Assembly: GCF_035594765.1 (NCBI RefSeq) | Contig: NC_085842.1 | Span: forward strand, 263,113,749 to 263,177,748 | Source of the DNA: Anolis carolinensis | Taxonomy: Eukaryota | Direction: 5' to 3' | Length of the DNA stretch: 64,000 bases | Shown here: positions 1-48,364 of the stretch, one piece after another | Layout of the letters: each line of letters starts with the position of its first letter | Position numbering within the stretch: position 1 is the stretch's first letter | Notes under the pieces: model-generated | Databases searched by the model: none | Seen by the model: only the letters and a program-made list of their open reading frames with translations | Told to the model about the DNA's origin: nothing | Translations under genes and position numbers: made by a program

Positions 1-1810
1 CAAAACGCTCAAAGAATAAAGCCCAGCGCTGTTGCCTCTGATTTAACTTGCGGGCAGTTCTTAGATGTTCTAGATTCCGATGATCAGTATGGATCTCAAT
101 GGGAAATTTGGCCCCTTCTAACCAATGTCTCCAAGTTTCGAAGGCTGCCTTTATGGCCAAAAGTTCTTTTTCCCAAATAGTGTAATTTCTCTCTGGGGCT
201 GTTAGTTGACGGGAGTAAAAGGCACAAGGGTGAAGATGATCTCCCACTGGTTGCAAGAGTACAGCCCCAATTGCCACATCGGAGGCGTCAGCCTGCACAA
301 CAAAAGGGATTTTAGGATCTGGGTGCTGAAGGATTGGCTGGGACGTGAATAATTTCTTTAGTTGCTGGAACCCTTTCTTTGCTTGCTCCGTCCAGCGAAA
401 AGGCTGTTTCCCACGGATGCAGCTGGTGATTGGATCAGACCAGCGGGCAAAGTCTGGAATGAACTTGCGGTAATAGTTCGCGAACCCCAAGAAACGTTGC
501 ACCTCTTTCTTGTTGGTTGGCGCCCGCCATTCCAATACTGCTGAAACCTTTGCCGGGTCCATGGAGAGCCCTAGTGGTGAGACACGGTATCCCAGAAAAT
601 CTACCTCTTGTAGATCAAAAGCGCATTTTTCCAACTTGGCATAAAGTCCATGATCCCGCAATCGTTGTAACACCATTCTGACATGGTTCTCATGTTCTGA
701 TTGTGATCTAGAAAACACCAAAAAATCGTCCAGGTAGATGATCAAGAACCGATCTAGATAGTCCTGAAAGATATCATTGACAAAATGCTGGAAGGTTGCG
801 GGAGCTCCACATAAACCATAATTCATGACCAGGGACTCGAATAATCCGAATTTAGTCTGGAAGGCGGTTTTCCACTCGTCCCCCTCCCTGATGCGAACTA
901 GATTATAAGACCCCCGAAGATCCAGCTTGGTGTAAACCTTGGCCCCTCGTAGCCGATCTAATAGGTCCGAGATCAAAGGCAGGGGATAGCGGTTCCGCTT
1001 AGTGATATTGTTCAATGCTCTATAGTCCACCACCAAGCGTAGGTCCCCTGACTTCTTTTTCACAAACATCACTGGGGAAGCGGCTGGGGATTGAGAGGGT
1101 CTGATGAACCCCTTGCGGAGGTTTGACTCTATGAACTCCCTGAGAGCTTCTTGCTCTGGTTCAGTCAAGGAGTAGAGGTGTCCTCGCGGGATCGGGGCCC
1201 CCTCCACCAAGTCAATGGCACAGTCATAAGGCCTATGCGGGGGTAGTCTCTCGGCTTCCTTTTCATTGAAAACATCCCAAAAGTCTGAGTATTTCTTGGG
1301 CAAGGTGATGATGGATTCAGCGTCTGTGGCGTGACAGACCTTGGCTACAAGACAATGATTTTGGCAATATTTAGAAGCAAACTGCAGTTCTCTGTTGGTC
1401 CAAGAGATGCTAGGGTCGTGGAGTGTCAGCCATGGGATTCCCAAAATCACAGGGAAGTGGGGAACCTCGGTAACAAAGAAGGAGATCTCTTCCATGTGTT
1501 CCCTTATCCACATTCTGGTGGGCTCAGACCATTGGCTTACTGGACCTGTCTTTAGGGGGCGGCCATCTATGGCTTGCACCACCCGGGCGTTCTTGAAATC
1601 GTGATATTGTAATCCCAGAGAGTCGGCATACTCTCTATCAATGAAATTGTTTGTCGCTCCTGAGTCTATCATGGCATGGATCATGACGGGTCCTTTTTTC
1701 GCTGACCACAAGGTGACCACTAGGAGAAATAGGACCCCGGTTGGCGGCTCTTGAGTGGGGTTTTTGACCGGGTTGGCGAGCCTCTCTACGCCCGGTCGGT
1801 GGCTTCCCCC
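1..1810 (-). CDS. pol: Gypsy Pol (protease-RT-RNase H, partial), -1 frame relative to gag
   Basis: Manual translation: AMIDSGATNNF (PR), LPPHRPYDCAIDL, VDYRALN, IYLDDFL (~740-725), VQADASDVAIGAVL and TDHRNL (RNase H). No stop seen; frame runs off the window. Confidence 0.95.
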
Positions 1811-2772
1811 GCCGGCTTTGCGCCAGCTGCCTCGGACGCCTTCGTCTCCACGGAGGACGCCGCCGCCAGACGAGCGGCGGGCTTCCCTTTGGCTGGACAC
1901 TCTCTGGCAAAGTGGCCCCCGTTTCCGCAGTACCAACAGAGGTTTAAACGTTGGCGGCGGGCCTTTTCGGCAAGATCTAGTCTGGGACGCACATTGCCCA
2001 ACTGCATCAGCACCTCCTCGCTTCCTCTGGGGTATGGGGCTGGTGGCGGGGGTCTCCACACTGGACGTGGCTGGATGCCGGGCGGAGCGGGAGGTTTTGC
2101 TCCAGCTCTTCCACTCTGGCCTCGGATCCACTGTTTTCTGTTGGCAAGCATGACTTCAGCTCGTAAACATTGATCAATGAGTCTTTCAAGAGAGTTTGGA
2201 GGGTCCACTTTGGAGATTTCCTCCAACATCTCGATGTTAAGACCCTCCCGAAACTGTCCTCTGAGGGCTATGTCATTCCAGCCGGTGTTTTGGGCCAGCA
2301 CTCGGAACTCGGCTATGTACTGGGACAAGGGCCTGTCCCCTTGGGAAAGGCGCCGGAGTTTGTGGCCGGCCGCCTCTAAATTGTCCTCGATCCCCCAAGT
2401 CGCTTTAAGGTGATCCAAGAAGTTTAGCGCGGAACTTAGATGCGGGGAGGCTTGATCGAACAGTGCCGTCGCCCAATTGGCCGCTGGCCCGTCTAGGAGA
2501 CTATAAATCCATGCCACCTTGATGTCTTCTTGGGGAAACTCGGCATTTCGGGCCTCTAGGTATGCCTGGCATTGGCGACGGAAAACATGAACCTTGGAAG
2601 CCTCTCCAGAAAACTTGGTGGGCAACGCCAGGGCAGGGAGACGGGCTCCACGTTCCTTCAAGCCCCGTATTTCTCCCTCCTGCGCATGGAACATATCACA
2701 GATCCTGTCCACTTCATCCTTGGCGATGGTGTAGCTGAGTGGTTGGTCACCCGGTCTGGCTCCGGTAGACAT
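1786..2772 (-). CDS. gag: Gypsy Gag (328 aa), sushi/PEG10-like
   Basis: LPTKFSG...FRRQC capsid region; QGDRPLSQYIAEFR MHR-like motif; CWYCGNGGHFAREC zinc knuckle. Confidence 0.96.
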   Translation of the reverse strand: MSTGARPGDQPLSYTIAKDEVDRICDMFHAQEGEIRGLKERGARLPALALPTKFSGEASKVHVFRRQCQAYLEARNAEFPQEDIKVAWIYSLLDGPAANWATALFDQASPHLSSALNFLDHLKATWGIEDNLEAAGHKLRRLSQGDRPLSQYIAEFRVLAQNTGWNDIALRGQFREGLNIEMLEEISKVDPPNSLERLIDQCLRAEVMLANRKQWIRGQSGRAGAKPPAPPGIQPRPVWRPPPPAPYPRGSEEVLMQLGNVRPRLDLAEKARRQRLNLCWYCGNGGHFARECPAKGKPAARLAAASSVETKASEAAGAKPAGEATDRA

Positions 2773-2802
2773 TCTGGCCTAGGTTAAATGGTGCTTAGGG
2801 TG

Positions 2803-7745: not shown

Positions 7746-7816
7746 AACCCAACTGCCTGCCTGAAGCAAAACAGAGCAGTGTAATGAATGGGATATGATG
7801 GTTGATTAAGCAACTA

Positions 7817-8039
7817 AAGGTGCATCTATACTGCAGAATGAATGCAGTCTGGCATGATTTTAGCTGCGTGGCTCCATGCTATGGAATCATGGGAGTTGCA
7901 ATTGGTGAGGCACCAGCATTCTTGAGCAGAGAAGTTTAAAGACCTTGTAAAACTAGAACTCCAAAGATTCCATAGCATGGAGCCGTGGCAGCTACCGTGG
8001 TGGCAAACTGCATTAATTCTACAATGTAGATGTGCCTTA
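7817..8039. mobile_element. Foldback MITE, Harbinger-like (related copy ~10123-10350)
   Basis: Long terminal inverted repeat aggtgcatctatactg.../...tgtagatgtgcct. Confidence 0.7.
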
Positions 8040-8500
8040 TTCACTATTTAGGGCCCCTTCCACACTGATTAAAATCCCACATTATCTACTTTGAACTGGA
8101 ATATATAGCAGTGTGGATTCAGATAACCCAGTTCAAAGCAGATATTGTTGGATTTTCTGCCTCAATATTCTGGGTTATATGGCTGTGTAGAAGGGCCCTT
8201 GGTCCACTGAAATTGGAACTAGCAAATGAACTCAGACCTAGGGACCCTTCCACACAGCCCTATATCCCAGAATATCAAGGCAGAAAATCCCACAATATCT
8301 GCTTTGAACTGGGTTATCAGAGTCCACACTCAGATAATATGGGATTTTCTTTTTTGATATTCTGGGATATAGGCTGTGTGGAAGGGCCCTTGGTCTTTAT
8401 ACTTAAGAAGTTTTCCCAGGATCTCCAAGAGGTGATCTCAAAGGCTGGATGGTATCCATGTCAAGAGTTAGGAAATGTGTGTATGCATATGTGTATACAT

Positions 8501-8627
8501 CAGGTATGGGCAAACTTTGGCTCTCCAGGTGTTCTGGACTCCAACTCCCACAATTCCTAATACGGTGTTAGGAATGGCGGGAGTTGGAGTCCAAAACACC
8601 TGGAGGGCAGAAGTCTGCCCATGTCTG
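8501..8627. mobile_element. Short hAT MITE (URR1/Charlie-like hairpin); relatives near 6978, 9630, 21875, 27240, 32870, 39255
   Basis: CAGGTATGGGCAAACT...AGTCTGCCCATGTCTG; 8-bp TSD GTATACAT/GTATATAT. Confidence 0.85.
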
Positions 8628-8672
8628 GTATATATGTATGCATGCACATATATATTTATGTATATGTATATA

Positions 8673-8965
8673 GAGTCCTCGGTGGCGCAGCAGATTAAAC
8701 TGCTGAACTTGCTGACCGGGGTGACCTCTTGATGTTAGCTCTAGCTTCTGCTCACCTAGCACTTCAAAAACATGCAAATGTGAGTAGATCAATAGGTATT
8801 GCTCTGGTGGGAAGGTAATGGCGCTCCATGCAGACATGCCAGCCACTCACCTTGGAGGTGTCTACGGAGAACGCCGGCTCTTTGACTTAGAAATGGAGAT
8901 AAGCACCAACCCCCAGCGTCGGACACAACTAGACTTAATGTCAGGGGGAAAACCTTTACCTTTAT
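8673..8965 (+). mobile_element. Sauria SINE
   Basis: Homologous to 7310-7628; ggggaaaacctttaccttta tail. A 3' fragment also lies at 10750-10825. Confidence 0.88.
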
Positions 8966-9311
8966 CTATATGTATGTATAGTGTGTATGTGTATGCATGT
9001 AATATGTATGCATGTAAAATATGTGTGTGTGTATTGCACTGCAGATCCCAGAATTCCTCAAACAGCATGGCCATTGACTGGGGCATCCTGGGAACCGCCA
9101 TCCAATAAACTTGCCTGAGGTTTACCTCTCACATCAGCCCTAGTTCCACCTCATAACACGTCACCCATTGAGCTCCAGCGAGGACCCTCCTCCTCGTCCA
9201 GGGCCTCCTCTCTTCTCCCCAACTTTCCTTCCCTCCTTGCCTCACTTTCCCAGCTGCCACCTGAACCAGGCGAAACTGCTTCCAAAACTGGAAATGACGG
9301 GATAAACTCAC

Positions 9312-9341
9312 CTCATTGTTGAGGTTCAGAACTTGAGCCAT
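9312..9341 (-). CDS. Putative first coding exon of unidentified host gene (MAQVLNLNNE)
   Basis: Good Kozak (gacgATGG); donor GAG|GTGAGT; immediately downstream of CpG-containing promoter motifs. Confidence 0.6.
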
Positions 9342-9354
9342 CGTCCCTCACAAA

Positions 9355-9500
9355 GCCCCTCGCAGGCGCGTTGCTAGGGCAACAAGACACCCCAAACCAG
9401 GGCTTCTTTCCTCCCCTCACGTTTTCTCCTCAGCCCAAGCAAAAGAACGCGCATGCGCCACTTTCGCAAACTCTAGCTCCCTTTCCGGTTGGCGCTCTAG
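9355..9500. promoter_or_regulatory. Promoter with RFX X-box, NRF1 and ETS motifs
   Basis: GTTGCTAGGGCAAC 9370-9383; GCGCATGCGC 9449-9458; TTTCCGG 9482-9488; local CpG enrichment in non-repeat DNA. Confidence 0.75.
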
Positions 9501-23032: not shown

Positions 23033-26000
23033 TCCCCCTCGATGGATTGTCACCTTGCCGTGGTGAGGGGGCTTGCGTGTTCCGATGAACCTGTGGGCAC
23101 AACCACTGGAGTGATGCACTCCCAGGAGTAGCCGCAGGGGAGGTTCCAGACCAAGCACAATCCGAAGACCCAAAGACCTCAACGGCGGAGCAGGCGGAGG
23201 ATAACATGGTACATGTTACAACGGCTGTGAAGGCGGAAGAAGGCTGCAACAGACTGAGAAGCCACTCTCGTTGTGTTAACCACACCACTGCTGGAACCTC
23301 ACTCTGTGAAGACTGTGTGTTGACCGGCCATGCACCGACCTCCACACATTAAAAAAAATCACGCACAGGCGTCTTCCAACAAAAATAAAAACAAACCTAC
23401 AAAAGTCCCATGGTGATCAGCGAGTGGCGACGGGGGCAGGACTGTGAAATCTGGAAGCCCCTAGTCACAGGCTGGCACATGGGCGGTGGATATGGACTCA
23501 GTCGTTCTACCTCAAGGACCGAGGCAGTTGAGTAGTCCGGCAGCTGTATCCATGACTGAGCAGCCCTTTTTAGGATCCGCTCTGCTCACCCCACACGGGG
23601 AAGGGGCTAGAAAAGGTGCCCTAAACATAGTCTGCCTCTCCTACCCTGACTGGACTGCCGCGTCCAGAGGGGTCACCACTCTGCGGCCAAAAAAGAAAAA
23701 TGAACTTTGGAACATGGAACATACGGACATTGTTAGATAACACTGACAGCGAACGCCCCGAACGCAGGACTGCTCTCATTGCAAGGGAGCTGGGACGCTT
23801 TAAGATCGACATAGCAGCCCTTCAGGAGACCCGGAGAGCAGGAGAGGGACAGAGGAAGGAAAAAAAGGGAGGCTACACCTTCTTCTGGAAGGGACTGCCT
23901 GAAGAAGAGCGAAGAATACACGGAGTTGGCTTTGCGATCAGAAACGACCTGGTGAAGCACCTGACTGAAGCACCCACTGGCATCAACGAACGACTTTCAA
24001 CCCTCCGAATTAACCTTGCCAAAAACCAACAGGCAACCATCATATGCGCCTATGCACCAACTCTAGATGCTGACGAAGACATCAAGGAAAATTTTTACTG
24101 TCAGCTGGATACCATCCTATCGGAGATACCTAAGGAGGACAAAATCATCCTCCTGGGGGACTTTAATGCAAGAGTCGGAAGGGACTCTGACCTGTGGCCA
24201 GGGATCATAGGAAAAGACGAGGTCGGAAACAGCAACTCGAATGGCATCTTGCTTCTCACCAAATGCGGAGAGCACAACCTTGTCATCACCAATACGCTCT
24301 TCCGCCAGAAAAACAAGCTCAAGACATCATGGAAGCACCCTCGGTCAAAGCATTGGCACCTCCTGGACTATGTTATCACACGTGCCAGAGACCGCCGCGA
24401 TGTGCTTCTCACAAGAGCCATGACAGGTACTGATGACTGCTGGACAGACCACAGGCTAATCCGATCCACGATGGCTATCAAGATCGTCCCCAAACGCAGA
24501 CTCCAAGGAAGAAAAACAAGGTGCAAAATGAACACCCAAGCCCTTCAGGAGCCCTCCAAATGAGCCCTTCTCCAAACAACACTCAAAGATCATCTACCCA
24601 CAGAACACCCCGAAAATGTTGAGGAACATTGGAACAAACTGAAGACCTCCATCATCACAGCCTGCGAAGAAAGCATTGGATACCTAACTAAGAAACATCA
24701 AGACTGGTTTGATGATAACGACAAAGAGATCCAACAGCTGATTGATAACAAAAGGAAAGCCTTCCAAACATGGCAGAGAGACACCAACTGTGCTGCCAAG
24801 AAAAAGATCTATGCCAGTGCAAAAGCTGAGGTCCAAAGAAGGACCAGAGAACTCAAGAACATCTGGTGGACAAAGAAGGCTGAAGAAATCCAACACCTTG
24901 CAGATACCCATGACGCTCAGGGATTTTTCAAAGCCACAAAGATCATTTACGGACCAAGAAACCATGGCATACAGCCCCTATGCTCATCAGATGGAACCAA
25001 AATTCTGAAGGACAAAACATCAATTGCACTACGTTGGAAAGAGCACTACCAGAACCTGCTGAATCGCAGCTCCAGTGTGGCCGAAGAGACCCTCTCACAA
25101 ATCCAGCAACAACAAACCAGGGATGAGCTTGCAGCACTGCCTAGTTTGGAAGAAGTCAGCAATGCCATCAGCCAACAAAAAAACAACAAAGCCAGCGGAC
25201 CTGATGGGATTCCTGCTGAAATCTTCAAAGAGGGTGGACCTGAGCTGATACAACAACTCCACCAGCTCATTAAAAAGGTGTGGATGACCGAGAAAATCCC
25301 AGCTGACTTCAAGGATGCCACCATCATCACCCTTTTCAAGAAAGGGGACAGAACAGACTGCGGGAACTATCGTGGTATCTCCCTTCTAACCTCGGCCGGG
25401 AAAATCCTTGCAAGAATCCTTGCAAACCGCCTTCTCCCTGTCTCAGAAGACACCCTCCCAGAATCCCAGAATGGCTTCCGTCCCTCCAGAGGAACAGTGG
25501 ACATGATCTTCACTGCTCGACAGCTCCAAGAAAAATGCAGGGAACAAAACCAACCTTTCATTGACCTTGCAAAGGCATTCGACACAGTGAATCACAGCGC
25601 TCTCTGGACCATCCTCCAAAAAATCGGGTGCCCTGACAAATTTGTGAATATCCTGCGGCTCCTCCATGATGACATGATGGCAACAGTCTTGGACAGCAAC
25701 GGCTCCCAAAGTGACCCATTTAAGGCGGAATCAGGTGTCAAGCAGGGATGTGTTATTGCCCCCACCTTATTTTCCATCTTCATCGCTATGATACTTCACC
25801 TTGTTGATGGGAAGCTTCCCACCGGAGTGGAAATCATCTATCGGACAGATGGCAAGCTATTTAACCTCAACAGACTGAGAGCCAAAACCAAGGTCACCAC
25901 AAAATCTGTTATAGAACTCCAATATGCTGATGACAACGTAGTCTGTGTGCATTCAGAAGAAGACCTACAACCACTCTAAACACCTTCGCAGAAGCATACG

Positions 26001-26935
26001 AGAAGCTCGGCCTCTCACTGAACATCGAGAAAACCAAAGTGCTCTTCCAACAGGCACCAGCTAATCCCTCTGCAAAGCCAGGAATACAGCTTAACGGTGT
26101 AACATTAGAAAATGTTGACCATTTCCGCTACCTTGGTAGCCACCTCTCCACAAAAGTCAACATCGACACTGAAATACAACACTGCCTGAGCTCTGCGAGT
26201 GCAGCATTTTTCCGTATGAAGCAGAGAGTGTCTGATGACCGGGACATCCGTAGAGAGACCAAGGTGCTTGTTTATAAAGCCATTGTCCTCCCAACCCTGC
26301 TCTACGCCTGCGAAACGTGGATTGTGTACAGACGTCACACCAAACTCCTGGAGCGTTTCCATCAGCGTTGCCTCAGGAAAATCCTGCAAATCTCTTGGGA
26401 AGACAGGCGGACAAATGTCAGCGTCCTTGAGGAAGCAAAGACCACCAGCATTGAAGCGATGCTCTTACGCCATCAACTCCGCTGGACTGGCTACGTTGTC
26501 CGAATGCCCGATCACCGTCTCCCAAAGCAGCTCCCCTACTCCGAACTCAAGAATGGGAAACGGAATGTTGGTGGGCAGGAAAAGAGATTTAAAGATGGGC
26601 TCAAAGCCAACCTTAAAAACTGTGGCATAGACACTGAGAACTGGGAAGCCCTGGCCCTTGAGCGCTCTAATTGGAGGTCAGCTGTGACCAGCAGTGCTGC
26701 GGAGTTCGAAGAGGCACGAACGGAGGGCTTAAGGGAGAAACGTGCTAAGAGGAAGGAGCGTCAAGCTAACCCCGACCGGGACCGCCTTCCACCTGGAAAC
26801 CGATGTCCTCACTGCAGGAGAATATGCGGGTCAAGAATCGGTCTCTTCAGTCACCTAAGAACACACACCCAAGATACCAAGGTTGGAAGACTATCGTCCT
26901 CGAACGACGAGGGATCGCCTAAGTAAGTAAAGTAA
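23033..26935 (+). mobile_element. Full-length RTE-clade LINE, inactivated
   Basis: TSD GGATCGTAATTT at 23021-23032 and 26936-26947; ~670-nt 5' UTR; single APE-RT-C2H2 ORF; (TAAG)n tail. Confidence 0.97.
23700..26926 (+). pseudogene. RTE ORF (APE endonuclease, RT, C-terminal CCHH finger), disrupted
   Basis: GTWNIRTL, LQET, GDFNA, TDHR; FIDLAKAFD, YADD; CPHCRRICGSRIGLFSHLRTH. TGA at 24561-24563, short in-frame deletion before FIDL, frameshift near 25970. Confidence 0.95.
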
Positions 26936-29880: not shown

Positions 29881-31001
29881 TTTGGGTCCTGGTCCTTAAC
29901 AATACTGAAACTAAAATCAGCTCTTGAGCTGAAAGTTTTTCCAATCCTGGGCATAACTAGGCTGGTTTAGGATGTATGTGTGTTTGTTACTTCAGGAGGA
30001 AGGAATTGGTAAATCACTTCTGAATAATCCTTGCCTAAAGAAAAAAAAATCTTATGAAATTTACCATAATGTTTACGATAGCACTGAATAATTTAAATTG
30101 ATTTCCTGCTTTCCCATGATAGCAATGGGGCTCCATTCCTCTGAGATTGAGAAGCATCTGCCTGATCCTTGTACACCCTCCTGTGTGCAATCTCCAATGC
30201 AACAGGTCAAAAAAGCAACTATTTTGCAAATTCCCATCACACCAGAGATCATTTATTGGAGGCATTGGATTGTAACATCAAGCAGCTGCTTCTTCATCAG
30301 CAGGAGAATGGAGCCCTGTTGAGCTCAGTGGTTGCTTACTAGTAAATGGGATTTGGGAGCTTAACTATGGGCTAGGATCATGAATACACAGCTATAGGTT
30401 ATGTATTCATAACTGCCCAACAGGATACTAGCAATGAATTTTAAATATTTGTAGTGCAATCACTTACTGCTCACACATAAGCTCAGTTGATTTCAATTGG
30501 ACTCATTTCTGCTGTTCACACAAAGTTGCAGTTTTATAGTGAGTGATTGGAAAAACAGATTGATTTCTGTGCTGCTCATATTCAAACTATTATTTACCAA
30601 TATGACATTGACATGGGAATTCCCTAAGTGTTCAAATGTCTTTTTATTGCAACAAAAGTGTTTCCCACTTCCTATAGCTTGTGAATCAGCTTATTTAGTT
30701 TTGTGCTGCTCAGTCAACAGTAGTTTGTAATTGTGTTTCTGGCATTTTTGTGTGTGTGTGTCAGGAGCAACCGGAGTTGCTTCTGGAGTGAGAGAATTGG
30801 CCTGCAAGGATGTTGCCCAGGGGACGCCCGGATGTTTTTTTGATGTTTTACCATCCTTGTGGGAGGCTTCTCTCATGTCCCTGCATGGAGCTGGAGATGA
30901 TAGAGGGAGCTCATCCGCGCTCTCCCCGCGTGGGATTTGAACCTGGCAGCCTTCAGGTCACCAACCCAACCTTCAAGTCACGAGGCTTTTATCCCCTAGG
31001 C

Positions 31002-33109: not shown

Positions 33110-35107
33110 TAGGCTTGTCCGATCGATGGAAAAAATGTTTCAATTCTTGTTTCTAAAGTAGGGGGTGCCGGCGCTTCGATATAGAAATTATTTCCGAATT
33201 TTTCACCCAAAAATTTCGGATATTTCCAAAAATTCATAATGATTCTTAATGTTTGTAAAAGGCGGACGCGCATGCGCAATCGCCAAAAAAAAAGGAAACC
33301 GGGGGGGACTTTTACAGGGCTCTCCCACCCTCATTTCTTGAGCTATCCTCATCAAATTTGGTACAGTGGGAGATCACATTCAACACTCTTTGCTCAACAA
33401 ATTGCAGAAAGTTTCCTGTCTCCTATGAATTTTGGCGAATTTTCATAACTTTTTATAATACACTATTTTTCAATATTTGAAGAAACCTGTTCCTGGTTTG
33501 AAAGTCTTATTTCCTGTTCAATTGGGTTCTTATCACTGTAAAAGTCCCTCTTCTACTTGTGTAGACTTTGGATTAGAAACGCAGCACATGCCAAGCAATG
33601 CCTTGGCAGGAGTGCCACTGTCCTTTGGAAACTGGCCTTTGAACCTTTTGATCAATGGTGCCACTGACTGACCTTGTGATTGCAAAAATGAAACTCTGGC
33701 TGAGGACTTTGGATTAGAAATGCAGCACACGCCAAGCAATGCCTTGACAGGATTGGCAATGTCCTTTGGAAACTATAAATTGCTGTGGACCCTCTATTGA
33801 ATCAAATCAATGTCTGACTTTGTGATTGCAGAAATAAAACTCAGCCCAAGGCTTGGGAATAGAAATGGAGCGCAAGGGAAGCAATGCCTTGGCAGGAGTG
33901 CCCACGTCCTTTGGAAACTATAAATTGCTGTGGACCCTCTATTGAATCAAATCAATGTCTGACTTTGTGATTGCAGAAATAAAACTCAGCCCAAGGCTTG
34001 GGAATAGAAATGGAGCGTGAGGGAAGCAATGCCTTGGCGGGTGCCCCACGTCCTTTGGAAACTATTTCTTCCAATGTACCCTTTTAGGTTTGAAAACAAT
34101 GTGTGTCTTTGTGATTGCTGCAATAACACTCAGCCCGGGGGTTTGGGATTACAAACGGAGCGGGAGGGAAGCAACGCACTTGCAGGAACGCAGACATCCT
34201 TTAGAAACTATAACTTCCAATGTCCCCCCCCCCCTTTCAGGATTGCTATGAAGGGCTGATCTAGAGGTTGCAAAAATCAAATAAAAGGCAGAGGGTCTCT
34301 GGAGTAGAAAAGGAGAGGACCCCAAGCACTGCACTTGCAGGAACGCAGACGTCCTTTGGAAACTATAACTTTCAATGTCCCCCCCCTTTCAGGATTGCAA
34401 AGAAGGGCTGATCTAGTGATTGCTAAATTCCAAAAAAAAAAAGGCAGAGGTTTAGAAATGGAGCATCAGGAAAGCAATGCCTTGGTGCCCATGTCCTTTT
34501 AAAAATAAAAATTGCCTAAAGCCACAGCAAGGACTCTGCCACATCCCACAAGCCCCAAGCCAATTTCTCAAAAAAACAAAAAAAAAACAAAAAACACAAT
34601 ATCGAACCAGCAACAACAGATACTCCACCCTCTATAGCCAGAACACTTAGCCCTCTCTCCCCAAGCAGCTTGATTCCCAGCGCGGCGCGATCCACCCTCT
34701 CTGCTCGGTATCCTAGCCCAGAATGGCTTGCCTGGGTTGGGGAGGGGTTTTTTATAGAGATCTTACCCGTGGACGCGGAGGACGCTAGCCCCCACCTTTT
34801 CCAGCCATCGTGGAAGTCTCTGATTGGCCAGGGAGCGGCATCCATTTTAGGCTGCGCTAGGCTCCCATTCAAGTTAGGTTGCAGAAACAAATTTTTTTTT
34901 AATTTTTTTTTTAAAAAAAATTAAAAAAAATTGGGGAGGAAAAAATTTAACAAAACATTAAGAAACAATTAGAGAATGGGCCAACGATGGTTCAAATTAC
35001 GTTGCCAGTTGCGCCCAGGGACAACGTTTCAATACTCGGTTCAAAAAGCAAGAACAATCCGAAATAATTCCAAAATAAGAATCATAACGAAATTTTGGAC
35101 AACCTTA
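33110..35107. mobile_element. 2-kb non-autonomous hAT-like element with internal ~145-bp tandem array
   Basis: 8-bp TSD GTGATTAG at 33102-33109 and 35108-35115; ends TAGGCTTGTCC/GGACAACCTTA; CpG-rich subtermini. Confidence 0.88.
33585..34500. repeat. Tandem repeat, about 7 diverged units of ~140-160 bp
   Basis: gcaatgccttgg...gtcctttggaaact recurs near 33595, 33736, 33881, 34026, 34171, 34330, 34474. Confidence 0.85.
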
Positions 35108-39243: not shown

Positions 39244-40917
39244 AATATTGGTGGGCTCATACAGCCTTTCAGATGTTGTTAAGATTGCAGCTCCAGCTTT
39301 CACCATCATTGGTTATACTGGCTAGGGTTGTGGGAAATTTGAAGTTCAGCCTCTGGAAGGCTGCATAAATTCTGATGTTTACCCTCAATCCACTTGATTA
39401 TTCCCAGGGCAACATACTGGATGAATTGCTGAATAATTGTCAATACTTAGGTAGATTCCACTGATTCAACAAATTTGCTCTTAATGAGACTTAGCATTTC
39501 AGTTAAGGTCATTGATTTTTTTGTTTTCACATACAATTTGTACTTAGGTATTCTCACCTCTGCTACAGGATTTGCTTTTCATCCTCCTGTTAACATTAAT
39601 GTTGGGGGTGATCAAAGATATTTCAGTTCCAGGAAACTGCAAGCACAGGATGCTTCAAAAAGATGGACCCAATTTGCAATCACTGTATGTCTGCAACCAC
39701 AAACTATCAATGAGTAAAACTCTTACCACTTGAAAAGGTTGAGCATGGCATTTCAAATGATTACTGCTAGATGCCTCTTCCAGTGCACAAACAGCCCCTA
39801 CCATCAGCAAGATGGCGACCCCACAACATAAGACCAATTAAGATATTGTCCATTTACAGAGTTTGTTTTTAAGAGTTGGTTCTAGCTCAAAATGGTTAGT
39901 AAAACTTGATGACTTGATTACTCATTAAAAGGTAATTTTGGTGTAATTGTAACATGATGCTGTTGTGAAATATACTTGAAATTAGGTCCATCATTTCAAA
40001 AAACCCTGTAGTTCATTCTGTAGTCTTTGCAATGATATTTTTGGTATATTTCATGGAGCCCTTTTATTTTGTGCCATGACATTTTTGAGCACTGTAAATA
40101 AAGCAGTAACAGATTACCTTCTAGCTGGCAATGCAACTTTCATTCCCCTACAGCAATCAAGAAGTAATTTCAAGCAGACTGTCAACAGCTCTCTTTATTG
40201 CTTTTTCATATTTTTACATTTACATCAAACTTAAAATTAAACATGTAATCTGACTGTATATTAAGATTTGAGGCACTGCAATGAGTGAGATGCAGCTAGG
40301 CATCATATCATTTGGTTACCCTCTTCATTAAAATTACTGCAGATAAAAATACTTGGGATCAGGCCTACAGCTTGGACTGTGGGGGTATTGGTCTTTTTCC
40401 TAAAATCTTGCCTGATTGCCAATCATACTCAAAATAGCTTTGGAAGGTATAGCGTGTGTCAAGAATAAGATGGTGATAGCAGACCAAGATAGAAAAGTAG
40501 GTTTTATATATCAGATATTGGAACAATACATATCTGTTCTGTCGGTTTTTCAAAAGTTTCTGCACTCCTATATAGTAAACTTGAGTGGAAAATATAAATA
40601 GTTCCCTCCTTTTGTTCTCCTATTGTTACCTTTATTGCTTTTTCATTGAAATCGTAGGAATATATGTGACAATTTTGAACTGCTGTAGATATATGTGTGT
40701 GAATGATTTACTAGTCCATTATGAGAAAGTGAACAAAACAATCACTGTCCTACAATGGCAGTTAAGAAATGGCCTTCTCTGCTACATAGGCAAATAGATA
40801 TTTCCATGTAAGAATCCATTTTCAAAGGTGCCCCCCAAAGGTGACTGATACACACTTTTTCCAAAAGTTATATAGCTATTTCCCATTCAACCAAGCAAAA
40901 TATAGATAGTTTTGGAA

Positions 40918-41203
40918 GGAGCCCCCGGTGGCGCAATGGGTTAAACCCTTGTGCTGGCAGGACTGCTGACCTGAAGGTTGGGTTGCTGTCCTGAAGGTTG
41001 CTGGTTCGAATCAAGGGAGAGCGCGGATGAGCTCCCTCTGTCAGCTCCAGCTCTCCATGCAGGGATGTGAGAGAAGCCTCCCACAAGCATGATAAAACAT
41101 CAAAACATCCGGGCATCTCCTGGGCGATGTCCTTGCAGACGGCCAATTCTCTCACATCAGAAGCAACTTTTAGTTTCTCAAGTCATACCTGGCATGAAAA
41201 AAA
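40918..41203 (+). mobile_element. Anolis-type tRNA-derived SINE with A tail
   Basis: A-box GGTGGCGCAATGG, B-box GGTTCGAATC, A-rich end. Confidence 0.88.
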
Positions 41204-42101
41204 AGCTTTGGCATCCATCAGACTGTATTGAAGATCTATACTGTGTCTTTCCAACATGTACATGTAGGGGCTTTTAGCTTGCTCAGACTGGACAGCTGCA
41301 TGTTTGTCTGGCTCGGTATTGGGACCATATTTCTGAATTCTTCCTACAATAAAAAAACCCATAAAAACCCTTCAGAATCTGAAAGTCTAGATTTACAATG
41401 TTTTTATTGTTTGAGTTGTATTATAGGCTGGAAACAATGTTTTGGCTTACAAAAAAAGCAGAGAAATGGGCTGATTCATCTCAAGGTGGTGGGAGGCTTG
41501 GCTGGCAGTTCCCTCCTCTGTAGTTAATATCCTGGAAGCCAAGGAATTATTTGAAAGAAATCAGAAGTGGTAACAGGCAGTATAAAAGGCAATAGAATAG
41601 CAAGCAGCCTATCTTGCAATGAGTGAAACATGCAAAGCTTTCAAAGATCAGAGCTTGGAAAAGTTACTTTTCGCATAATCCCACTGCCCTGAGTACTCTC
41701 CAGTAGTCTTGTGCATTCGGGGCAAACCTGGATCTGTTTCTTTTTTTTTTTTTAAATGTATTCTTTATTAAAAGAAAATTTTTCCCATTAATACATTGAC
41801 CTATCTAAAGGAAAGGTTGGGGTGGGAAGGTCGAGGTAAGTGGGTAAGGGAGGAGGTAATGGGTGGTGAAATGGGTAGTCCTATCCTGTATTTGGGGGGA
41901 TGAGGAGGCAAAAAGGTGAACTCTCTAGTGGGCCAGAGAGGGGTTCTGGATTGGGAAGGGACAGGGGAATGTTCGGGGAAGAATAGGAATGGGGGCCGAC
42001 ATTCGACTCCCGGATTGATACCCTATCTACAGTGGGGGGAGGGGTTGATTAGATGGAGGGGATGGACTTCCACTCTTCTTTCTTCCTTCTATTCTCGTGC
42101 T

Positions 42102-44503
42102 TCATTTTCCTTTCATTTCTTCTTGTAGGTAAATTTCCAATTCAGACCAGTCCGTTTGTTTCATTGGTTTCCCTGTGCTTCTTCTTGTCAGATAGGTTAA
42201 TTTATCCATATTTTTGATGTCTAGTAATTTTTCCAACCACATTGTTACCGTGGGGCTCTCTGGGTTCTTCCAGTTTTTTGCTACTACCATTCTTGCGGTA
42301 GTTACTGCATATGTAAAGATTTTTATCTTATTTTCTTTTTCTTTTAAGGAGTCTAATGGATCCTGCTCTTGCATTTCAAGTAACCCTAATAAAAAATATT
42401 CAGGTTTACATTCTAAATTAATTTTTAGCATTTTTTTTACATTCTAAGTGGATTGATTTCCAATAATTTTTAATATTTTTACAATTCCACCATATGTGGA
42501 AATATGACCCAATTTGTTCTTTACACCTCCAACATCTTTTGTCTCTGTTTCGATACATTAATCCCAGTTTTTTGGGGGTTAGATACCATCTATGGATAGT
42601 TTTTAGCCAATTTTCTTTCAAGTCAATTGAATAGCAATATTTTATTTTTTTATTCCAAATATTTTCCCATTCATCCATTGTGATGGGTCTGCCTATATTC
42701 CTAGACCATTTTAACATTGATTCCTTGACTATTACGGATTCTGTATTCCATTCTATTAATTTGTTATATAGAATCGTTACCAATTTCTTGTTTTTCTGAA
42801 GTATATTGTCCCAAAAATTGTTATCCAAATTGAAACCCGTTTCTTTATCTCTGTTATAACTTTCCTTTATTTGGTGGTATTGGAACCAGGATATATTCTT
42901 GTATTTTTTTTGAACTTCCTCTATTTCTTTGATACCTACTATTCCAGATATTAAATTTGATTTTTTAAAGATTTCTTTATATGTTGGCCAATTGTTCCAA
43001 CCCAATAATCTACGTTGGTTAGCCTCTAAAGAGGAAAGCCACAGTGGGGTTTTCTCATATAAATATCTTCTATATTTTACCCATATTTTAATCAAGGATG
43101 ACCTCACAAAATGGTTTCCAAAATTTTTATCAATTTTCATTTTATCGTAGCATAGGTAACCATGCCAACCCCATCGCAGATTGAATCCTTCAATTGTCAG
43201 TAATTTTTTATTTTCCAATTTAACCCAGTCGATTACCCATTCCAGAGCACACGCCTCATGGTAGAGTTGTAAATCAGGCAGTCCGAAACCTCCTCTCCTT
43301 TGAGGGGTGATCATCGTGCTAAATTTTATTCGGGGCTTTTTATTTTTCCAAATAAATTTTGACAGTTCTTTGTTCCAGTCTTTGAATACCTTAGCCCCTC
43401 TAATAATTGGGATGTTCCTGAACAGATATAACAATTTAGGCAAGACATTCATTTTAATAACCGCAATTCTCCCCATAAGTGAAATATTTAGATTTGCCCA
43501 ATTTCCTAAATCTTTTTTTATTTCCTTCCATTGTGCCCCGTAATTCAGATCTAATAGTTGGTTGTTTTTACTAGCTATCCAGATCCCTAAATATTTCATT
43601 TTTTTTACTATTTCCAAGCCCGATTTCTCCTTTAATTCCCTCTGGCTTCTCATAGACATATTTTTAGTAAGGGTTACTGTTTTCTTTTTGTTTAATTTGA
43701 AACCTGCCAGATATCCAAAATCCTCTATTTTTTTAACCAATCTTTTATCGTTTCTTTTGGGTTTTCAATTACACAAATTACATCATCAGCAAATGCTCTA
43801 ATCTTTATTTCTTGTTTGTCCAATTTAATCCCCTTTAAATTTTCATCTTTTTGAATTGAGTTTAACATGATCTCCAATGTAAAGATAAAAATTAGCGGAG
43901 ACAGGGGACAGCCTTGTCTCGTTCCTTTAGTTATTTCAAATTCTTTAGTTAATTGATTGTTTACTCTAATTCTAGCGCTTTGCTGATGATATATTGCGTT
44001 GATTCCATTTTGAAATTGATTTCCTATGTCTATTTCCTTTAATAGTAGTTTTAAAAAGTTCCAATTGACGTTATCAAAGGCTTTTTCAGCATCTACTGCT
44101 AAAAAGCCCACCTCCTTTTGATGATTTACATCGAAATATTCTATCGAATCTATTATTAATCTGACGTTGTTCTTTTACTGTGATTGGGAAGGAATCCAGT
44201 TTGGTCATCTGAAATCCATTCTTTTAGAAATTCGGTAAATCTGTTAGCCAGCACTTTTGTGAAAATTTTATAATCGGTATTAAGTAATGAGATGGGGCGG
44301 TAATTTGATACCTTATTTGGATCTGATCCTTCTTTATGTATTAAAATAATTTCCGCTTTTTTCCACGTCTCTGGAATGATTTTTTTTGTTAGGGCTTCAT
44401 TCATTACCTTTTTCAAATGTTGAATTATTTCATCTAATTGTAATTTATAGAAGCCCGCCGTGAATCCATCAGGACCTGGGGATTTATTGGCGTCTAAATT
44501 TTT
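42102..44503 (-). pseudogene. L1 ORF2 RT and C-terminal part
   Basis: KSPGPDG, NYRPISLLN, DAEKAFD, GTRQGCPLSP, FADD, KYLG, CWRC...HIWWNC; frameshifts near 44170, 43735 and 42430. Confidence 0.95.
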
Positions 44504-45631
44504 CCGGTGAGCGTTCATGGCGACGGACATGCTTCCCCAGGGCTCTGGGAGAAGCGCCCGAGGTTGCACCCAGAGCGAGCCTTAGGCTGCCCCTCGCCTC
44601 GCGGATCGAAGCGGGCGAGGTTGCCAAGTCAGTTAGCGTCCCGACGACCCCAAAAATCATCCGTCCCTCAAGGGCGGATGATCGAGAGGGTCCGGGAGTC
44701 TGACGAAGCAGGGAGCAACCCATGAAGCAGAAGAGGGCTTCTGCACAAGCCGGGCGCCACGCTCATCTCAATGAAGAGCAAAAGTAAGTGAGAGAAAAAA
44801 AGAGACTCCGGGGAACGGGGGGCTCCGGATACAGGAACTTAAGTTCCCAAATGAGAGAATTGGATCTTCTTCTTCTAACAATGGGCAAAGGGAAGAAAGA
44901 ATTATAAAGGGGGATCGCGTAACCCTCACAGAGCCAGATCGTTATACGTTAGAAAACAGAAGAGATAATAAGAGTTAAGAGTATAATAGAGCAATCTAAG
45001 AAACCACTTGTGGTGGGCGAAAGCTTATTTAACGAGCAACAAAGAAAGAGAAATAGAAAAGAAAGGGATTACTTTGCATATCTTTAAAAACAAAGGGGGA
45101 AGGGAAACAGCACTTTTGGTACAGCCTTCTTGATAGGAAACTGGCAAAAAGAGTCAGAGAGCACTGGGGAGTGTTGTAATTTAAACAAGGCTCTTAAATT
45201 CGATACTGCAGAATATAACCACGGGAGGATTATACTAACGGAAGAAGGCCCCCTCAGAGGAGTTGGCGACCGAAAAGACGCCCGCCATATCAGAAGCCAG
45301 CAAGACCTAACTGACCTTGAGAAGGAGTTTGTTGTGTCTATGTAAGTCCCTGCCCCAGCCGAGCGAAGTTTGGGGAGGAGTCCGCAACCGGAGCTGGCTA
45401 GGAGGTGAGACGCGCTTCTGGTGGAACAGGAAGCCGAAGGGACTAATTTCAAGAGACACAAACCATAGAGTTCTGGCAGAAGGCGGAAGGAGGGGCATTA
45501 AGAAAGAGACACCAGGATCTAATCCTCCCATTACCTATATTAAGATAGAAGGCAAATAAGGAACCCAGAGACAAAAAGGCCATTGCAACCCAAAAGAACA
45601 ACTTGTTTAAGTAAATCTTTACTAAGGAAAA

Positions 45632-46708
45632 ATGGACTTCAAAACAACGACCCTTAGGGGGAAAACAGAAAAGGATGTTAGAGACCCTAAGACGCTACAA
45701 AGACGAAACTCAATCCCTGAAGATACCGGGTTCTGTGAATTATTAAAAGAGATGCAGAAAATCTCAGATAAGCAAGACTTGCTTCAAAAAGAGATTCACG
45801 GGATCGCAGTAAAACAGGACTTGCAACAAAAAATATTGCAAGAAGAAATGACTATATTAAAGAAAGAAATAAAAGAGGAAATTTGCACCATTAAACTGGA
45901 AGTGGCAAAAAACGTACAAGAAATTCAAGAAATTAAAACAGACAACATAAGAATAGAGAGGACACAGTTAAAATTACAACAAAAAGTGGAAACCATGGAA
46001 TTCAAGAACACCAAACTGGAAAAAATGCAAGAAAAAATTGAACAAAATGAAGCAGAATACCAACTAAGATTTCGAAATATAGAAGAAGACCCTAAGGAAA
46101 ATATTAAACAAATTATAACCAAGATAACTGCTGAAGTCATACAATGCAGTGAGAGAGAGGCAGCTGAACAAATCGATAGCGTCTACAGACTACATACAAA
46201 TTATGCAAAAAAATATAAAGTGGCCAGAGACGTCATCGCACATTTTGTAAAGAAAAGTTTTAGAAACGAAATATTATACAATTCCAGAACAAAATCAATT
46301 ACCTACAACACAAAAAGAATTATGATCCTCAAAGAATTCCCACCATCCACTATCAATAAACGGAAAAAGTACTTTTTCTTAACGGATGAATTGAAGCGCC
46401 TCCAAATCAGGTTCCGCTGGGAGAAACAAGAAGGTCTCATGTTAACTTATAAAGGGGAAAAAATTTGGATTAAAACAGAAGAAAAAGCAGACCAATTTTA
46501 TAGGAAGCTAAAAAAAGACTTAGCACAAAGACTATCACCACAATCATCGAGTGAAGAGAAAAACCCCAAAAAGGCAAAGAAAAGAAGACAAGAGTCGCCA
46601 AAGGAAGTTGTGGAAGAACAACTCATATCAATTTTAGGCGAAGATCAAGAAGCTCTTTCAGAGGAGGAAGAGGAAGGAGAGAAAATGGAAGATGCCCTTA
46701 ATGAATAG
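45632..46708 (+). CDS. L1 ORF1p (358 aa; coiled coil, RRM, CTD), uninterrupted
   Basis: Long heptad region, then LRFRNIEE, IDSVYRL, ARDVIAHF, ILKEFP, IRFRW; precedes ORF2. Confidence 0.92.
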   Translation: MDFKTTTLRGKTEKDVRDPKTLQRRNSIPEDTGFCELLKEMQKISDKQDLLQKEIHGIAVKQDLQQKILQEEMTILKKEIKEEICTIKLEVAKNVQEIQEIKTDNIRIERTQLKLQQKVETMEFKNTKLEKMQEKIEQNEAEYQLRFRNIEEDPKENIKQIITKITAEVIQCSEREAAEQIDSVYRLHTNYAKKYKVARDVIAHFVKKSFRNEILYNSRTKSITYNTKRIMILKEFPPSTINKRKKYFFLTDELKRLQIRFRWEKQEGLMLTYKGEKIWIKTEEKADQFYRKLKKDLAQRLSPQSSSEEKNPKKAKKRRQESPKEVVEEQLISILGEDQEALSEEEEEGEKMEDALNE

Positions 46709-48078
46709 TTTTACCCAATCAATAAAGATATTTTCGAACAACATTAACGGTTTGAACTCGCCCATTAAGAGACAGAGAACCTACAACTACTTAGGTAAGA
46801 AAAATTATAATATTATTGCTCTCCAAGAAGTCCATATCGCCCAGAAACATTCAAAATATTTAATACATACTAAATTGGGAAAATTATATTACGCTCTGGA
46901 CACAAAGAAAAAACGGGGGGTGGCCTTATATATAGATGAAAAATTTAAATCTGAAGAAATATTTAAGGATCAGGAAGGAAGGATAATAGCAGTAAAAATT
47001 GACCTAGGCATTGAAAAACTATTAATCTGTAACATTTACGTTCCAAATGGCCCCAAAAGAAAATTTGTTAATGCACTAAGAACCAAAATTGGGAAGACAG
47101 ATTTTGACCACATTGTAATTATGGGAGACTTCAACGGAATATTAGATAATAATTTGGATAAATCGGTAAAGAAAAAGAAAAATAATAATAACTCTCTTCC
47201 AATAAATTTTTCACAATTAAAAGATGAATACGATCTAGAGGACATTTGGAGAATACGTAATCCTACACAAAGAGATTATACATTCTACTCCAATCGCCAT
47301 AATTCATGGTCCAGAATCGATATGATCTGGACATCTAAAAGTTTAGAACCTAAAGTAGATGAGATAAAAATCTTAACACGAGATCTTTCAGATCACTGCC
47401 CATTGATTATGAATATAAATTATAAAAAGAAACCGGTAAGTTGGAGATTGGATAATAATTTAATTAAACAGGAAACTGACATTAAAAAAATTAAAAGGAT
47501 GACTATGGAATACTTTCAATTTAATGATAACCAAGAGACAAGTCCACAAACAACCTGGGATGCCTATAAAGCAGTAGCTAGGGGCCATTTCATTCAGCAG
47601 AAAGCACGAAAAAATAGAATTAAATATCAAAAACTACAAGACATACAAAAAGAAATGGAAGCAGAGGAATTACAATTAAAAAAAAAACCCAAGTGATGGA
47701 AAGATTATGAAAAAATTAAAAATATTACACAAACAGAAAAGCAACTTAGAATTGGAGCACTTAGCTAACCAACTGAAATGGACAAAACAGAACGCATTTG
47801 AGAACGCAAATAAACCAGGGAGATGGTTGGCCAGAATGATAAGAAAAAAGAAAAATAAACAACAAATCACAAAAATAGAATCACAAGGGAAATTGATATA
47901 CATAGATGATAAGATAAGAGACATCTTTGAAAGTTTTTATAGCAATCTATATAAAAAAGATAATATAGATTTAGATTTAATTGGCGAATATTTAAGTAAG
48001 CTAAAATTGCAAAAAATTACAGAAGAACAAAGATTAATTTTAAATAAAGAAATTACAGAAAACGAAATAAAAATGGCT
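46692..48078 (+). pseudogene. L1 ORF2 N-terminal part (APE endonuclease and linker)
   Basis: NINGLN, LQE, NIYVPN, GDFN, SRID, SDH; frameshift in the A-run near 47680. Confidence 0.93.
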
Positions 48079-48364
48079 ACCTGGATCTGTTTCTTGTCCC
48101 AGCTTTCAGTGGTGGGCCTCAATCCATTTTTACGGAGCCTCCTGAAATTGGGAGAGCAAATATTTGTTTTTGCTTTTTACTGCTGAAATATAAATTTTCT
48201 TCCATCTATTAATGGGGAGGCTTCCCACCCAGACTCCCCTTCCCGGTGAATGCTTTAAGGAGGCTTTTTATTGGGGTTTGCCTTACCTTCATCTGGGGAG
48301 TTGAAGGGCTCCTTGGCTGGGGATGAAGACCCATCACATTTGCCGGTGAACTTGCTCCGTAACC

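Follow-up and report, generated by a model that had tools for sequence, protein, structure and literature searches.

The 5' inversions of mammalian L1 (long interspersed element 1) are accounted for by the twin-priming model, which reportedly goes back to Ostertag and Kazazian in 2001. Twin-primed mammalian copies carry one target-site duplication (TSD) of 10-20 bp that encloses a 5' piece in antisense and a 3' piece in sense, the latter ending in a poly(A) tail, along with a T-rich nick site, a short inner deletion and short microhomology at the junction, and all of these are shared by the L1 copy described here, which lies at positions 41726-48095 of a 64,000-nt stretch of the Anolis carolinensis genome (contig NC_085842.1, positions 263,113,749-263,177,748 of the forward strand, assembly GCF_035594765.1), hereafter called the window. 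What sets the anole copy apart is its lizard host, the extension of its inverted arm up to the 5' tip and a primer pairing of only about 1 nt. It is highly probable that this copy represents one L1 insertion, the 5' 3.6 kb of which are inverted with respect to the 3' 2.8 kb, made by twin priming of a single full-length RNA.

Among the L1 copies of human and chimpanzee, about 31% are 5'-inverted (PMC2912911). Human 5' inversions have TSDs of 10-20 bp (PMC4245944) and human twin-primed cases TSDs of 12-18 bp, with inner junctions showing deletions of 1-10 bp in 22 of 32 cases and duplications in 10 of 32 (PMC11702581). In human tumours, 66% of inversions come with inner deletions (median 14.5 bp), all inversions of the set (1,836/1,836) were classed with a 5' deletion, and the median lengths are 0.54 kb for the inverted arm and 1.51 kb for the forward arm (bioRxiv 2024.08.27.596794). 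The closest case outside mammals is a zebrafish Nimb-2_DR insert in chicken DT40 cells (PMC4245944), a single case which likewise shows 5' inversion of a long interspersed nuclear element (LINE); it belongs, on the other hand, to another clade and was engineered in cell culture, whereas the anole copy is a natural germline L1. No reptile L1 inversion was found in the literature searched, work on Anolis L1 and reptile Bov-B included, older papers on vertebrate LINE junctions lying outside that search. Novick 2009 and the work of Ichiyanagi and Okada on vertebrate LINE junctions may cover such inversions.

The first-pass annotation of the window had described one 17-bp TSD around two oppositely oriented halves and a nick site TTCTT/G, and both were found as it had put them. 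The TSD is exact (41726-41742 and 48079-48095), no further copy is present in the window on either strand, and a match of at least 17 identical bases occurred in none of 2,000 randomly drawn pairs of regions 5.5-6.9 kb apart, the longest having 16. The span between the two copies is 6,336 nt, for a total L1 length of about 6.3 kb, and the two halves are arranged head to head. The forward 3' arm (2,761 nt) runs on the minus strand up to 44503 and comprises the poly(A) tail adjoining the left TSD copy, seen as an 11-nt T run at 41743-41753 with two more T common to the TSD, a C-rich 3' untranslated region (UTR) of about 347 nt (41754-42101, AATAAA at 41764-41769) and the non-inverted 3' part of the second open reading frame (ORF2, 42102-44503), with the end of the Z region, the reverse transcriptase (RT; RVT_1 match, FADD motif) and a C-terminal CX2CX8HX4C motif, corresponding to residues 254-1053 of the Anolis ORF2 protein P0022. 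The inverted 5' arm (3,578 nt) runs on the plus strand up to 48078 and comprises a 5' UTR of 1,130 nt with 48 CpG in two CpG-rich zones (44502-45631), which starts at the lizard clade-1 5' motif, an open ORF1 of 358 amino acids (45632-46708) and the 5' part of ORF2 (46701-48079), with an APE-type endonuclease (Exo_endo_phos, E 2.8e-13) and a linker, corresponding to P0022 residues 1-252. This arm adjoins the right TSD copy (48079-48095), the first base of which is common to the element. The nick site lies on the plus strand at this copy (TTCTT/G, 48091-48096, cut at 48095/48096) and is a variant of TTTT/AA (PMC2912911), a consensus for human L1 that may not be the preference of the lizard enzyme. 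An exonic target site was considered and is unsupported, as no frame through the modelled empty site stays free of stops for more than 60 codons. No second copy of the L1 was found within the 64-kb window by self-BLAST, and the Rfam search gave 0 matches.

As to the identity of the element, ORF1 is identical at 356 of 358 residues to P0001, a predicted protein of Anolis carolinensis, while the other 20 ORF1 matches are 38-61% identical and come from Anolis wherever a species is named; Pfam gave no match for this ORF1. The search with the linker piece of ORF2 returned 20 ORF2 proteins, P0022 being the best. The start of ORF2 overlaps the end of ORF1, with the start ATG at 46692 or 46701. The copy resembles the clade-1 L1 of Anolis carolinensis (PMC5381506) in its 5' motif, in a 5' UTR length inside the range of 792-1,465 nt, in about 48 CpG, in the ORF1/ORF2 overlap, in an ORF1 of 1,077 nt, in the CX2CX8HX4C motif, in the C-rich 3' UTR and in a total of about 6.3 kb, and it likewise has ORF1 and ORF2 (APE endonuclease, RT, CCHC) without a long spacer. 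Comparison with the named L1_AC families covered the first 400 nt of each of 12 lizard consensus sequences (PMC5381506), in which a 13-nt motif from the 5' UTR of the anole copy had no match.

The inner ends of the two halves are adjacent in the element. The plus half ends with ...EITENEIKMA at 48078 and the minus half begins with KNLDANKSPGPDG at 44503, and P0022, which reads ...EIKMAIKNLDANKSPGPDG... across the break, matches the plus half through residue 252 and resumes in the minus half at residue 254, with Ile 253 missing. About one codon had been noted as missing here, and from the absent Ile codon we infer a refined net loss of 2 nt, because the A at 48079, with which the right TSD copy starts, can equally be read as part of the element, as in the contig joint from 44503 to 48079, and the Ile codon is otherwise gone. 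The element as a whole has probably lost about 5 bases.

Contigs from four public runs were mapped to 40900-48330, X15, X1 and X7 being from organism A and X10 from organism B, a related species. X15, X1 and X7 each have one contig, of depth 148-330, in which 44503 is linked to 48079 on the opposite strand, and this corresponds to the collinear form of the L1 family; the joint was found in none of the X10 contigs listed. Because P0022 and one contig in each of three of the four runs cover both halves collinearly, both halves are, by sequence comparison, of one family, and an origin from different subfamilies, which the first-pass annotation had named as the finding that would speak against it, is rejected. 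The differences from the run contigs, counted over the 39 in-element differences among those listed and hence lower bounds, amount to at least 15 in 2,749 nt (0.55%) for the 3' half, 12 in 1,130 (1.06%) for the 5' UTR, 7 in 1,077 for ORF1 and 5 in 1,371 (0.36%) for the 5' part of ORF2, and the X15 contig spanning 44526-45766 on the side of the 5' UTR holds 14 substitutions and 3 gaps. Dating of the insertion by CpG decay was rejected, CpG losses among these 39 differences being about as many in the run contigs (5) as in the window (4); losses are present on both sides and part of the 0.6% divergence therefore reflects a different source element.

The same data bear on the possibility that two RNAs or two insertions were involved, with two copies of one family, one 5'-truncated and the other 3'-truncated and in opposite orientation, being joined at one target. 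Opposite-orientation joins of two templates at one site are seen in human cells (PMC11702581), and divergence from the run contigs is indeed higher in the 5' UTR (1.06%) than in the 3' half (0.55%). However, the inner ends abut within 2 nt, which by arithmetic over 6.3 kb would happen about once in 1,000 for independent templates, the two parts of ORF2 show a similar divergence (5/1,371 and 15/2,749 nt), and there is a single TSD and a single poly(A), so that an origin from two templates is regarded as extremely unlikely.

At its other end, the inverted arm opens TTCCGGTG-N7-ATGGCG from 44502, and the published lizard clade-1 5' terminus reads GACTTCCGGTG-N8-ATGGCG (PMC5381506), the N7 spacing being found in the clade-1 families AC12 and AC14 (PMC5381506 supplement). 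The claim that the inverted half reaches the 5' end is upheld by this match, with the refinement that the tip appears to be about 3 nt short of the terminus, the yardstick being the clade consensus and not the copy's own family; the listed run contigs extend into the 5' UTR only as far as 44526. The 5' truncation of the inverted piece that is typical of twin priming, and not defining for it, is thus absent save for these 3 nt or so relative to the clade consensus. Given the published terminus, the TT at the inversion junction (44502-44503) fits both halves, in agreement with the microhomology described there at first pass, and at a length of 2 nt such a match could arise by chance.

These end points also have to be reconciled with any inversion that took place after the insertion, a collinear full-length L1 having been inserted first and its 5' part inverted by double-break repair. 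The end product would look identical, full-length insertions likewise have TSDs of 12-18 bp (PMC11702581) and the weak 1-nt match at the TSD junction suits blunt joining. One of the breaks would nevertheless have to hit the border between the TSD and the 5' end to within about 3 nt and leave the TSD intact, which only a few positions among thousands would be expected to allow, and the breakpoints hold no repeat to promote a flip, the longest inverted repeat at the bounds of the flipped piece being 8 nt. A later inversion is for these reasons considered highly unlikely.

The empty allele, for which the first-pass annotation had advised a search, is present in X10 (organism B), where a 710-nt contig runs from 41197 to 41724 and then from 48079 to 48243, so that the target is present once and the L1 is missing. 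In X15 and X7, the depth remaining at 48113 (23.5-12.4 = 11.1 and 69-48.5 = 20.5, respectively) equals that of their left-flank contigs, which extend 85 and 134 further letters, and because of this match in depth we infer that the left-flank contigs of both runs cross the empty site. The left-flank contig of X1 (41336-41724) stops 18 letters past 41724, at what would be the exact end of the target copy, and the branch at this contig end might mean a carrier or a mere coverage gap. The insertion is probably recent and polymorphic; most full-length Anolis L1 are polymorphic (PMC3787681).

Taken together, the TSD, the adjacent inner breakpoints, the one-family origin and the empty site, which like the orientations of the halves and the poly(A) tail are observed directly, support the interpretation as twin priming that had been made at first pass. 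In a course of events modelled on the human process (PMC2912911, PMC11702581, PMC4245944, bioRxiv 2024.08.27.596794), the L1 endonuclease would cut at TTCTT/G (48095/48096) on the plus strand. Complementary DNA (cDNA) would be primed from the poly(A) tail by the T-rich end, and this first cDNA would come to about 2.76 kb, stopping where the RT region starts. A second nick 17 nt off would free a 3' end, which would find its priming site on the same RNA 2 nt beyond where the first cDNA stopped, paired over only about 1 nt, and the second cDNA would reach the 5' end of the RNA or stop within about 3 nt of it. The two cDNA ends would then be joined via the 2-nt TT/AA match and filled in. A 1-nt match at the second priming site has a chance of about 1/3, and the site is not among the best pairing sites. 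A cDNA tether for the second primer was also considered, as the last 6 nt of the top-strand overhang (41726-41731) recur once in the element, in sense, at 44474-44479 on the minus strand, 24 nt from the inner break. This idea is post hoc and weak, since 48 of 3,000 random 17-mers (about 1.6%) do likewise and 220 of 3,000 pair equally well by energy; the 6-nt match is probably due to chance.

Several observations speak against twin priming at this locus. The pairing of about 1 nt at the second site, with a 6-nt complementary site at 47553 left unused, compares with a pairing of at least 2 nt in 71% of human cases in one study (PMC11702581) and of 2-5 nt in about 70% in another (PMC2912911), and the arm lengths, with the inverted arm the longer, are opposite to the human medians. 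Human L1 showed no 5' inversion in chicken DT40 cells (PMC4245944), and according to a review the model itself awaits experimental validation (PMC10760644). The inverted form is moreover seen in one assembly only, and the filled junctions are in none of the contigs listed for the four runs, contigs being prone to drop rare forms. Because a repeat resembling a short interspersed nuclear element (SINE) at 40917-41160 filled the contigs listed, the missing filled-allele contigs are no evidence of absence. This SINE-like repeat is of very high copy number, its depth adding up to more than 600,000 in each of the four runs, and has a second copy at 30775-30980. Finally, 5 of the 7 indels among the differences listed alter homopolymer length, and local assembly errors are possible.

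The absent filled junctions, the imperfect base calls to which the homopolymer indels point and the multicopy nature of the L1 family, with less than 1% divergence, would also suit an assembly artefact, in which the 5' 3.6 kb of a collinear minus-strand full-length L1 had been flipped, whether through an error of the assembler or through a chimeric read or clone. The junctions, on the other hand, overlap by just 2 nt and 1 nt, the longest inverted match of 8 nt is inside the chance range (direct matches are mostly of 5-8 nt), and chance would not place the two ends of a flip at the TSD and at the 5' tip with bases lost at each. An artefact is accordingly judged very unlikely, and twin priming is retained as the most likely explanation of the locus.

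As it stands, the L1 copy is unable to mobilise itself, because its ORF2 is split between the strands and carries four frameshifts with respect to P0022 and the run contigs, one in the inverted arm (near 47678) and three in the forward arm (near 44175, 43727 and 42431), none of which the first-pass annotation had mentioned. Three of the four, which lie in homopolymer runs, may result from wrong base calls. The frame of the endonuclease stays open over 331 codons, and a sequence scan found its conserved motifs, the motif list used for the inverted part of ORF2 being that of human L1. The L1 promoter is now directed via ORF1 and the endonuclease toward the right flank.

The head-to-head arrangement raises the question of whether full-length inverted copies act as split L1s, a hidden source of ORF1p, endonuclease and RT that would not be dead on arrival. 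Antisense to the 5' UTR, ATGs at 44530 and 44518 (minus strand) share the reading frame of the RT half on the far side of the junction; on that strand the RT half retains its 3' UTR and poly(A), and the plus-strand promoter is intact and faces ORF1 and the endonuclease. If bidirectional, the CpG-rich promoter could let such a copy express both halves of ORF2 at birth, and split fragments of human ORF2p complement in trans and drive Alu movement inefficiently, including with a split at 347/348 without overlap (PMC4889948). Against this stand the end of the minus-strand RT frame after 124 amino acids, caused by a frameshift, the hypothetical nature of antisense promoter activity in the lizard and a split near residue 460, beyond the working split at 347/348, and this role is held to be very improbable.

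Other repeats are present in the window. A foldback element resembling a miniature inverted-repeat transposable element lies 235 nt to the right of the L1 (48331-48688), with 172-nt inverted arms that are 78% complementary and each hold an inner 25-nt hairpin pair. At 23631-26926 (plus strand) there is a near-complete LINE with endonuclease and RT Pfam matches, one stop and one frameshift, which we take to be RTE/Bov-B-like, and a decayed relative in the opposite orientation, 71-80% identical to it, lies at 19448-21154. An open 330-codon gag frame of the Ty3/gypsy type (Retrotrans_gag, zf-CCHC) is found at 1786-2778 (minus strand), and a tandem array with a 145-bp period and at least 3.8 copies (82% match) at 33563-34515. 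Direct and inverted repeats, short (60-200 bp) and closely packed, occupy 7800-10560; they are probably small non-autonomous elements nested in one another.

With regard to how unusual the anole copy is, the full-length inverted arm and the non-mammalian host stand as the first-pass annotation had it and are the only unusual traits, whereas the near-lossless inner junction does not, being a usual outcome of twin priming in view of the 22 of 32 human cases with deletions of 1-10 bp. Full-length inverted copies of human L1 may be on record. The anole L1 is hence an unusually complete example in a new host and not a new mechanism, and as a single locus it gives no estimate of frequency. Twin priming has been described nearly exclusively from mammalian L1, and a cell-culture study tied it to L1 and human host factors, with none in chicken cells (PMC4245944). 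The finding of a natural case, bounded by a TSD, in a clade-1 L1 of a lizard, a lineage distinct from mammalian L1, suggests that neither mammalian L1 nor human host factors are needed, and that the second reverse transcription is able to span 3.6 kb to the 5' end of the RNA. Surveys of L1 based on length might miscount such copies as one full-length or as two truncated elements.

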